Virus record (IMG/VR): IMGVR_UViG_3300033121_002248
From: a virus
Reading direction: 5' to 3' (one strand)
DNA: 22,716 nt
Shown here: positions 18,260-18,697 of the stretch, in pieces
How the letters are laid out: every line of letters starts with the position of its first letter
How positions within the stretch are numbered: position 1 is the first letter of the stretch
The notes under the pieces: generated by a model
Databases searched by the model: none
Seen by the model: only the letters and a program-made list of their open reading frames with translations
Told to the model about the DNA's origin: nothing
Program-made: the position numbers and the translations under genes

Positions 18260-18697
18260 ATGGAGGCTACTTTGGCCAAGATCATCTACGTCGCCGCGGT
18301 GCTGCCCGCGGAGGAGAAGGCGCGGCTCCTGGAGAGGTTCCCGCCCGTGCACATGCGGCAGTTCGGGCACCACTGCACGCTCGCGTTCCGCCCGAAGGGC
18401 GACCACCCCGTGCTGGCGCGGCTCGGCGAGGAGCTCGAGTTGAGAGTGGACGCGCACGCGCGCGACACGCTCGGCCAGGCCGTGACGGTGCCGGGCGCCC
18501 CCTCGGACAACGTCGTCCCGCACATCACGATCAGCTGCGCCGGAGACACGCAGCCGGTCTACAGCAACCAGCTCCTGGCCGAGGCGGAGGCCGCCGGCAG
18601 CTTCGAGCCGGTGGAGCACACGCTGCGCGCCCGCATCGGCGCGTTCATGGACAACGGGCGCTGGGCCTGGTCCCGCGCCGACCTGGAGGCCGAGTGA
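18260..18697 (+). CDS. 2H phosphoesterase superfamily protein (LigT / cyclic phosphodiesterase-like, 145 aa)
   Basis: Two H-x-T-x motifs with hydrophobic context: GHHCTLAF (H38-x-T40) and PHITIS (H88-x-T90). The small size resembles minimal 2H enzymes. The call rests on motifs only. Confidence 0.5.
   Translation: MEATLAKIIYVAAVLPAEEKARLLERFPPVHMRQFGHHCTLAFRPKGDHPVLARLGEELELRVDAHARDTLGQAVTVPGAPSDNVVPHITISCAGDTQPVYSNQLLAEAEAAGSFEPVEHTLRARIGAFMDNGRWAWSRADLEAE

Follow-up and report, generated by a model that had tools for sequence, protein, structure and literature searches.

The 22,716-nucleotide stretch of viral DNA analysed here (IMG/VR record IMGVR_UViG_3300033121_002248; hereafter, the window) carries on its plus strand a small gene situated directly downstream of a gene for a vault-like (MVP-like) protein. 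The product of this small gene is a 2H phosphoesterase. The assignment had been made in an earlier note on the same DNA and is confirmed by the two catalytic motifs, by the conservation of the family and by a confident predicted fold. The protein is a minimal stand-alone domain (about 140 amino acids, aa) of the type found in CNPase and in the cyclic phosphodiesterase (CPD) domain of Trl1. It belongs to a CNPase-like 2H family of proteins of about 120-160 aa, which has over 2,200 clusters and almost no annotation and is found predominantly on large phage contigs.

The 2H gene, its family and its predicted fold

The two H-x-T-x motifs that had been noticed in a small plus-strand open reading frame (ORF), HCTL with H38 and T40 and HITI with H88 and T90, are present, and the conservation of the family and the profile search place them far beyond chance. 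Residues of the protein are counted from ATG 18260; the positions of the gene and of the other features are collected in Table 1. The window has a GC content of 68.8% and contains many spurious ORFs. The frame of the 2H gene shows GC fractions of 0.71, 0.52 and 0.93 at the first, second and third codon positions, as in the real genes of this DNA. In two related loci, L017 and L018, orthologues are found at the corresponding syntenic position, and the ratio of nonsynonymous to synonymous substitution rates (dN/dS) of the gene was 0.36-0.54 in comparison with two orthologues.

A word-indexed search returned four relatives of the window protein. The profile built from these four sequences, when compared with 1.84 billion representative proteins, retrieved 2,212 clusters with E<=1e-3, of which 830 had E<=1e-10; most of the proteins are 120-160 aa long. 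Two alignments of 112 and 106 sequences were obtained from different searches. H38, T40, H88 and T90 are invariant in the alignment of 106 sequences; across the alignments, H38 is conserved in 100%, T40 in 98-100%, H88 in 99-100% and T90 in 100% of the sequences. High conservation was also found for Y10 (82-93%), P99 (84-90%), S102 (94-98%) and N103 (92-95%), and P87 is conserved as well.

The Pfam family tRNA_lig_CPD (PF08302), to which the Trl1 CPD belongs (PDB 6u00/6tzm), is the sole Pfam family matched consistently by the relatives: 105 of the 112 reach it at E<=0.01, with a best E-value of 3.6e-12, as against 8 for LigT_PEase and 5 for 2_5_RNA_ligase2. The window protein itself scores 20.4 bits with LigT_PEase (PF02834; cut-off 23.3), 18.8 bits with PF08302 (cut-off 23) and 17.3 bits with 2_5_RNA_ligase2 (cut-off 27). 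Judging by these sequence scores, the family lies at the edge of the PF08302 model. A cluster labelled "unknown function", phrog_36523, is matched by 65 of the 112 relatives, no meaningful family was found for the protein in NCBIfam, and PADLOC gave no match for it or for its neighbours, except for a nuclease domain (SNc) in the SNase-like ORF. Thus, PHROGs and NCBIfam offer no functional annotation for this very large family.

No match to the window protein was found by tblastn in 50,697 phage records. The same search with a more typical relative, P0003, gave weak matches of 27-36% identity, annotated as hypothetical, in crAss-like Bacteroides phages and in one phage of 595 kb. When 185,579 species genomes were scanned by pattern, only two contigs of metagenome-assembled genomes were recovered; such a scan detects close relatives only and has little bearing on the cellular distribution of the family.

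The structure predicted by AlphaFold from the alignment of 106 sequences has a pLDDT of 95.4 and a pTM of 0.89 (a model from four sequences, with a pLDDT of 59, was discarded). It shows the duplicated alpha+beta 2H fold, in which the two motifs are brought together. The best 50 Foldseek matches in the PDB were all CNPase or the fish protein RICH, and thus the closest structural neighbours belong to the CNPase/Trl1-CPD clade. Among the viral models of BFVD, the best matches were Trl1-like multidomain proteins of giant viruses, including the "RNA ligase" of Marseillevirus (765 aa) and a protein of CroV (771 aa). Two envelope polyproteins, Q9WHI8 and A4GTG3 (E about 2e-4), from walleye epidermal hyperplasia virus and walleye dermal sarcoma virus are also among the best BFVD matches, in agreement with the 2H domain already published for fish retroviruses (PMC9503650).

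CNPase (PDB 2xmi and related entries) and RICH share the HxT/HxT tetrad with the window protein. The sequence of the mouse CNPase catalytic domain used in the comparison was verified by its identity with the PDB chains (215 of 215 residues). Alignment with hhalign and HMMER placed Y10, H38, T40 and F43 opposite Y168, H230, T232 and F235 of CNPase, and H88, T90, P99 and V100 opposite H309, T311, P320 and V321. In the first strand, "viYvavfL" of the profile is aligned with "PLYFGWFL" of CNPase, and the P-V-Y-S-N segment is aligned with "ADVQPVQTG". The base is bound by F235 and V321 of CNPase, whose Y168 touches both the ribose and H230; catalysis is carried out by the His/Thr tetrad (PMC4643303). 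The substrate clamp is therefore represented in the window protein by Y10, F43 and P99/V100 at aligned positions conserved in the family, and its spacing is kept as well (H-C-T-x-x-F, H-x-T-x-x-C-A-x-D-x-Q-P-V and the strand-1 Tyr).

The two proteins differ in other respects. Their identity is 14-19%, and the window protein has about 140 aa compared with about 215 aa in the CNPase catalytic domain, with roughly 90 insertion residues fewer; 29 of these fall between the two motifs (hhalign, CNPase fragment 65-161 against window residues 36-103). The N-terminal P-loop domain and the C-terminal membrane anchor of CNPase are missing, R307 is replaced by V86, and the Y-S-N following P-V is specific to the window family. 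Unlike the vertebrate enzyme, the window protein comes from a viral or prokaryotic context.

In relation to Trl1, PDB chains of its kinase-CPD part gave weak profile matches (E 0.6). The kinase-then-CPD architecture of this enzyme is found in some relatives (P0202, P0207 and P0215), whereas the window protein is a single stand-alone domain with no linked P-loop kinase-like domain, and its PF08302 alignment is restricted to the region of the second HxT motif. The 2H fold is also common to LigT/ThpR (PF02834, PF13563), to which the protein shows sub-threshold Pfam matches around the second motif. By the Pfam cut-off and by closest structural similarity, however, it is not a member of this group.

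Proposed function and competing explanations

By homology, the window protein is very probably a CNPase-like cyclic phosphodiesterase with catalytic activity. In the proposed mechanism, the substrate's terminal nucleoside would be stacked between F43 and P99/V100, with Y10 placed on the ribose. H38/T40 and H88/T90 would then carry out a metal-independent acid-base hydrolysis of the 2',3'-cyclic phosphate, in which a water molecule is activated and the leaving O3' is protonated. The expected product is a 2'-phosphate with a free 3'-OH. The physiological substrate may be tRNA, mRNA or rRNA cut by metal-independent RNases of the host (HEPN, PrrC or colicin type). In a heal-and-seal route like that of Trl1, the enzyme would act first by healing such ends, and a kinase and a ligase would then reseal the RNA; these partner enzymes may come from the host or from genes located elsewhere in the genome. 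RNA end-healing is proposed as the physiological role only tentatively, at close to but not above even chances, and the explanation as a whole, a CNPase-type cyclic phosphodiesterase that heals RNA ends, is evenly poised between right and wrong. The earlier note had offered healing by a LigT-like enzyme as its second choice. Cyclic-phosphate healing is the part of this suggestion that is now best supported, while the affinity proved to be with CNPase and the Trl1 CPD and not with LigT.

Domain fusions are the most informative functional evidence. Among 52 multidomain relatives, the 2H domain is joined to an AAA_33 P-loop kinase in seven, to HAD_SAK_1 ("Swiss Army Knife RNA repair") in six, to NUDIX in two and to a second 2H domain in two or three. 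Single fusions were found with MJ1316 (RNA cyclic-end recognition), cREC_REC (cyclic-phosphate processing), a PolyA_pol/CCA head, R3H and NT5C; those with Peptidase_C39_2, PRTase and SET are uninformative. The fusion of AAA_33 with 2H has the kinase-CPD architecture of Trl1 and CNPase. Among the separate genes found near homologues, a related kinase lies 3 kb downstream of the 2H homologue in L012, and an RNA ligase lies 9.5 kb upstream of that in L001. A cREC_REC domain was met three times with the 2H family: in the fusion already mentioned, in a gene two genes from the homologue P0167, and among neighbour proteins pooled from five further loci, L010-L015, where the match is not tied to one locus. 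Roughly one in three medium and jumbo phages has been reported to carry 2H domains, and the phage enzymes have been proposed to remove 2',3'-cyclic ends on behalf of RNA ligases (PMC7824862, PMC9503650).

Several observations weigh against a role in RNA healing. RNA ligase, polynucleotide kinase, Tpt1/KptA and tRNA genes were all not found in the 22.7 kb of the window. The stand-alone members of the family lie in heterogeneous accessory regions of viral contigs of 110-190 kb, and most neighbourhoods of family members are without an RNA-repair gene. The window protein remains under the Pfam gathering cut-offs of both PF08302 and PF02834. Furthermore, small stand-alone accessory genes of phages with the 2H fold can be immune-signal nucleases, as in the case of Acb1, and the NUDIX fusions together with a Macro-domain gene near a close relative point towards substrates derived from ADP-ribose.

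The case of Acb1 is of particular relevance, since an anti-signalling enzyme of this kind was the leading suggestion of the earlier note. The description of Acb1 given there, as a 2H enzyme with paired His-x-Thr sites, is correct: it is compact and metal-independent, has an HxT/HxT tetrad and acts via a 2',3'-cyclic phosphate intermediate (PMC9117128). According to this explanation, the window protein would cleave 3'-5'-linked cyclic oligonucleotide immune signals of CBASS (a phage defence that signals through cyclic oligonucleotides) or the cyclic oligoadenylates (cOA) of type III CRISPR through the same intermediate, or else destroy linear or cyclic signals bearing a 2',3'-cyclic phosphate. 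Like Acb1 (T4 gp57B; PF23474; PDB 7t27), the window protein is a small stand-alone phage protein, close to it in size (152 aa in Acb1), with the HxT/HxT tetrad in a compact predicted 2H fold. Acb1 models are among the BFVD matches (E 3e-3, TM about 0.45), the family consists mostly of stand-alone proteins whose genes lie in variable accessory parts of large phage contigs, and some phage 2H domains have been proposed to counter oligonucleotide signalling (PMC9503650). Closer comparison does not favour this reading. PF23474 is unmatched by the window protein at E<=1 and by any of the 112 relatives at E<=0.01; the hhalign probability with T4 Acb1 is 0.6%, with the segment misaligned; and BLASTP found the PHIT motif only, with no alignable sequence outside the second motif. 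The structural similarity to Acb1 is about half that to CNPase, and the two catalytic His are 50 residues apart as compared with 69 in Acb1 (H44, H113). Acb1 is characterized by base-stacking aromatics (Y12, W74, F107 and W147) and a C-terminal lid that closes a U-shaped pocket. The window family conserves the CNPase-type clamp for one terminal nucleoside. The fusion partners are RNA-end enzymes and not signalling or effector domains. An Acb1-like nuclease is thus rather unlikely, and this reading can no longer be regarded as the leading one. It is also unlikely, to a slightly greater degree, that the family represents a new counter-defence family distinct from Acb1 and engaged in something other than RNA repair. 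Such enzymes would destroy messengers or toxic products with a 2',3'-cyclic phosphate (cOA-derived A2>p or A4>p, 2',3'-cyclic nucleoside monophosphates or ADP-ribose 1'',2''-cyclic phosphate, Appr>p), or would cleave cyclic oligonucleotides.

Appr>p is a by-product of Tpt1/KptA that yeast and plant cyclic phosphodiesterases hydrolyse. In a role in ADP-ribose metabolism, the enzyme would act on Appr>p or a related NAD-derived cyclic phosphate, either as the closing step of a 2'-phosphotransferase repair pathway or to eliminate a signal derived from NAD. Such a role agrees with the two NUDIX fusions, with the occurrences of cREC described above (the fusion, the gene near P0167 and the pooled neighbours) and with the gene content of L007, in which a Macro-domain gene lies three genes downstream of a 2H gene whose product has 76% identity with the window protein. 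The 2H, cRec, Macro and KptA proteins have also been connected in the literature (PMC9503650). However, genes for Macro, KptA, NUDIX and sirtuin proteins were not found in the window, the similarity to 1fsi is far weaker than that to CNPase, and kinase and HAD_SAK_1 fusions are commoner than NUDIX fusions, so that this role is judged quite unlikely. Free 2',3'-cyclic mononucleotides from RNA decay (e.g., of the RNase I type), hydrolysed for salvage or for the removal of a stress signal, are an even less probable substrate in place of polymer ends. For CNPase, the closest structure, assays use free 2',3'-cyclic nucleotides, and the enzyme binds a single nucleotide (PMC4643303); moreover, some homologues adjoin genes of nucleotide metabolism (ribonucleotide reductase, dCMP deaminase and dCTP deaminase). 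On the other hand, MJ1316, R3H, the CCA/polyA polymerase head and the polynucleotide-kinase-like P-loop, to which relatives are fused, recognise RNA ends or polymers, and CNPase and the Trl1 CPD act on oligonucleotide ends too, which makes the activity compatible with RNA healing. Finally, the many spurious ORFs in a window of 69% GC and the Pfam scores below the gathering level might suggest a chance ORF or a decayed, inactive 2H remnant. This is improbable in the extreme in view of the third-position GC of 0.93, the syntenic orthologues in L017 and L018, the dN/dS values, the high pLDDT of the model and the catalytic and clamp residues, which are intact and conserved family-wide.

Translation start, flanking signals and neighbouring genes

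Table 1. Positions of the 2H gene, its motifs, the flanking signals and the neighbouring genes in the window.
Feature	Position	Strand	Remarks
SSB (single-stranded DNA-binding protein)	7361-7759	+	
493-aa protein	10750-12231	+	weak Mrr_cat match, E 0.0037
PolX-like protein	13536-14072	+	about 178 aa; DNA_pol_B_thumb, E 1.2e-18
77-aa ORF	14096-14329	+	between the PolX-like and ExoIII-like genes
ExoIII/AP-endonuclease-like protein	14335-15126	+	Exo_endo_phos, E 1.3e-23
MVP-like gene	15554-18154	+	ORF listed as 15470-18154; 866-894 aa; MVP shoulder, E 1.8e-20; weak SPFH/Band_7
Perfect 10-bp G+C hairpin	18154..18177	+	directly after the stop codon of the MVP-like gene; no U-tract
Promoter-like TTAGCCC-N7-CATAAGT	18234..18254	+	TTAGCCC and [CT]ATAAGT conserved in L007 and L017
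GGAGG, putative ribosome-binding site	18262..18266	+	5 nt before TTG 18272; read from sequence; purine-rich counterpart in L007 and L017
2H phosphoesterase gene	18272..18697	+	141 aa from TTG 18272; 145 aa if from the in-frame ATG 18260
Tyr10 codon	18287..18289	+	first beta-strand; CNPase Tyr168
First catalytic motif, HCTL	18371..18382	+	residues 38-41 (H38, T40); matches CNPase H230-C-T232-T-K-F235 (hhalign)
F43 codon	18386-18388	+	after HCTL
Second catalytic motif, HITI	18521..18532	+	residues 88-91 (H88, T90); aligned with CNPase H309-V-T311
P-V-Y-S-N motif	18554..18568	+	P99-N103; P99/V100 as the CNPase base clamp P320/V321; S102/N103, family signature
197-aa gene	18694..19287	+	GTG start overlaps the 2H stop (GTGA); C-terminal Cys-rich zinc-ribbon-like motif
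SNase-like nuclease	19337-19786	+	also matches PADLOC candidate model C3a212 (SNc+LTD)
GH25 lysozyme	19787-20461	-	
GyrB/topoisomerase II ATPase, N-terminal part	21743-22714	+	runs off the contig end

The 2H gene had been described as starting at ATG 18260 and as giving a leaderless transcript. On sequence grounds, TTG 18272 is the most likely start in preference to this ATG. The intergenic region was aligned for the window, L007 and L017, the 2H protein of the last being 66% identical to that of the window. TTG 18272 is kept in all three genomes, and ATG 18260 is missing from L017. The three codons between ATG and TTG show nonsynonymous differences between the window and L007, while the codons after TTG differ mostly synonymously. 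In the gene calls of the source databases, the window protein (P0001) and its L007 counterpart are both 141 aa long, and in L017 the call is at the equivalent codon (138 aa). The arrangement CATAAG-N6-8-GGAGG-N5-10-start is also found before the starts at 6028, 14096 and 20523. The invariance of the TTG, the spacing of the GGAGG, the gene calls and the codon differences thus indicate a gene with a short Shine-Dalgarno leader, and the leaderless transcript is not borne out, since a conserved GGAGG-N5-TTG start lies 12 nt past an ATG that is lost in a relative.

At the level of sequence, the "promoter copy" that had been noticed upstream of the gene is a genuine motif. The window contains 9 copies of CATAAG, all on the plus strand, against 1.04 expected, and 4 copies of TTAGCCC against 0.59 expected. 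The copies of CATAAG(T) are found at 2939, 3858, 5572, 6006, 13500, 14068, 15481, 18248 and 20496; most stand 6-45 nt before likely gene starts, and four have TTAGCCC ahead at a variable distance. The element has the look of a promoter or regulatory signal specific to this lineage, and its positions suggest revised starts for some genes, e.g., 3906, 6028, 13536 and 15554, of which the last (an ATG after a CATAAG motif) is probably the start of the MVP-like gene. It has no canonical sigma-70 match, and a scan for sigma-70 promoters found none.

The hairpin after the stop codon of the MVP-like gene has compensatory changes in L017, where CGGGCC/GGCCCG becomes CGAACC/GGTTCG, and RNA folding of the region gave z = -3.4, better than 200 of 200 shuffles. 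It is a probable terminator or processing site; a scan for intrinsic terminators called none in the hairpin region. A second G+C-rich hairpin is present between the MVP-like and 2H genes, at about 18192-18225 of the plus strand. Because of the hairpin after the upstream gene and the promoter-like motif, the 2H gene probably heads its own transcription unit. No match to Rfam and no tRNA gene were found in the window.

The 2H gene stands in the order PolX-thumb protein, 77-aa ORF, ExoIII-like nuclease, 95-aa ORF, MVP-shoulder/SPFH protein, 2H protein and 197-aa protein, followed by a CxxCxxCC protein and, further on, GyrB. This order from PolX to GyrB is conserved in L017 (a groundwater contig of 58 kb) and in L018, both of which hold orthologues of the MVP-like gene. 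Full-length homologues of the MVP-like protein, with about 34% identity, were found in the uncultured phages LR756500, LR756501 and LR756503 (462-735 kb). No 2H homologue is present within 8 kb on either side of the MVP-like gene in LR756500 and LR756501. The adjacency of the 2H and vault-like genes, to which attention had been drawn, is therefore real but lineage-specific, and no functional module is implied. The MVP-like homologues in these phages, together with the genes for SSB, PolX, ExoIII, GH25 lysozyme and GyrB, make the window look like part of a large phage genome.

The 197-aa gene appears from the GTGA overlap to be translationally coupled to the 2H gene, and this overlap of 4 nt is kept in the window, L007 and L017. 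Its product has an acidic middle part and an invariant C-terminal CEKCxTPxSxxSIDGGRCLGSDxxGxxCG. Only six homologues were found, all of them hypothetical and from the same lineage. The 197-aa protein of the window has no match in Pfam, PHROGs, PADLOC or the PDB, and its L007 homologue gave a zinc-ribbon match at sub-threshold level only. Searches of PHROGs with the neighbouring ORFs returned nothing informative.

The arrangement of the genes for the very small PolX-like protein, the 77-aa protein and the ExoIII-like protein is conserved in L017 and L018. African swine fever virus has a minimal base-excision-repair pair of similar make-up. The ORF of the 493-aa protein, conserved in the same two loci, contains three tandem-like repeats of 81 nt (27 aa) at 11254, 11335 and 11416 with 73-76% identity. 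In L007, the nearest related contig, a VanY/M15-type peptidase is found in place of the SNase-like nuclease and GH25 lysozyme of the window. The Macro-domain gene of L007 is located at 2233-2688 of the plus strand (E 5.4e-5) and is absent from the equivalent position in the window.

Significance for large phages and for CNPase-type enzymes

Phage 2H enzymes and their likely roles have already been discussed (PMC7824862, PMC9503650), and most relatives of the window protein already reach PF08302. The finding therefore refines annotation and opens no new field. The conservation of an MVP-like protein in large phages is unusual and may merit a study of its own.

In many bacterial defences, phages are stopped by RNases that need no metal and that cut tRNA, mRNA or rRNA so as to produce 2',3'-cyclic phosphate ends; other defences signal with cyclic nucleotides. 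A minimal stand-alone cyclic phosphodiesterase that is very common in large phages is thus a plausible general countermeasure, and the protein is small enough for easy biochemical and structural work. The active site of the CNPase type is best known from vertebrate myelin; its presence in a stripped-down form in prokaryotic viruses bears on the origin of the healing modules of CNPase and Trl1.

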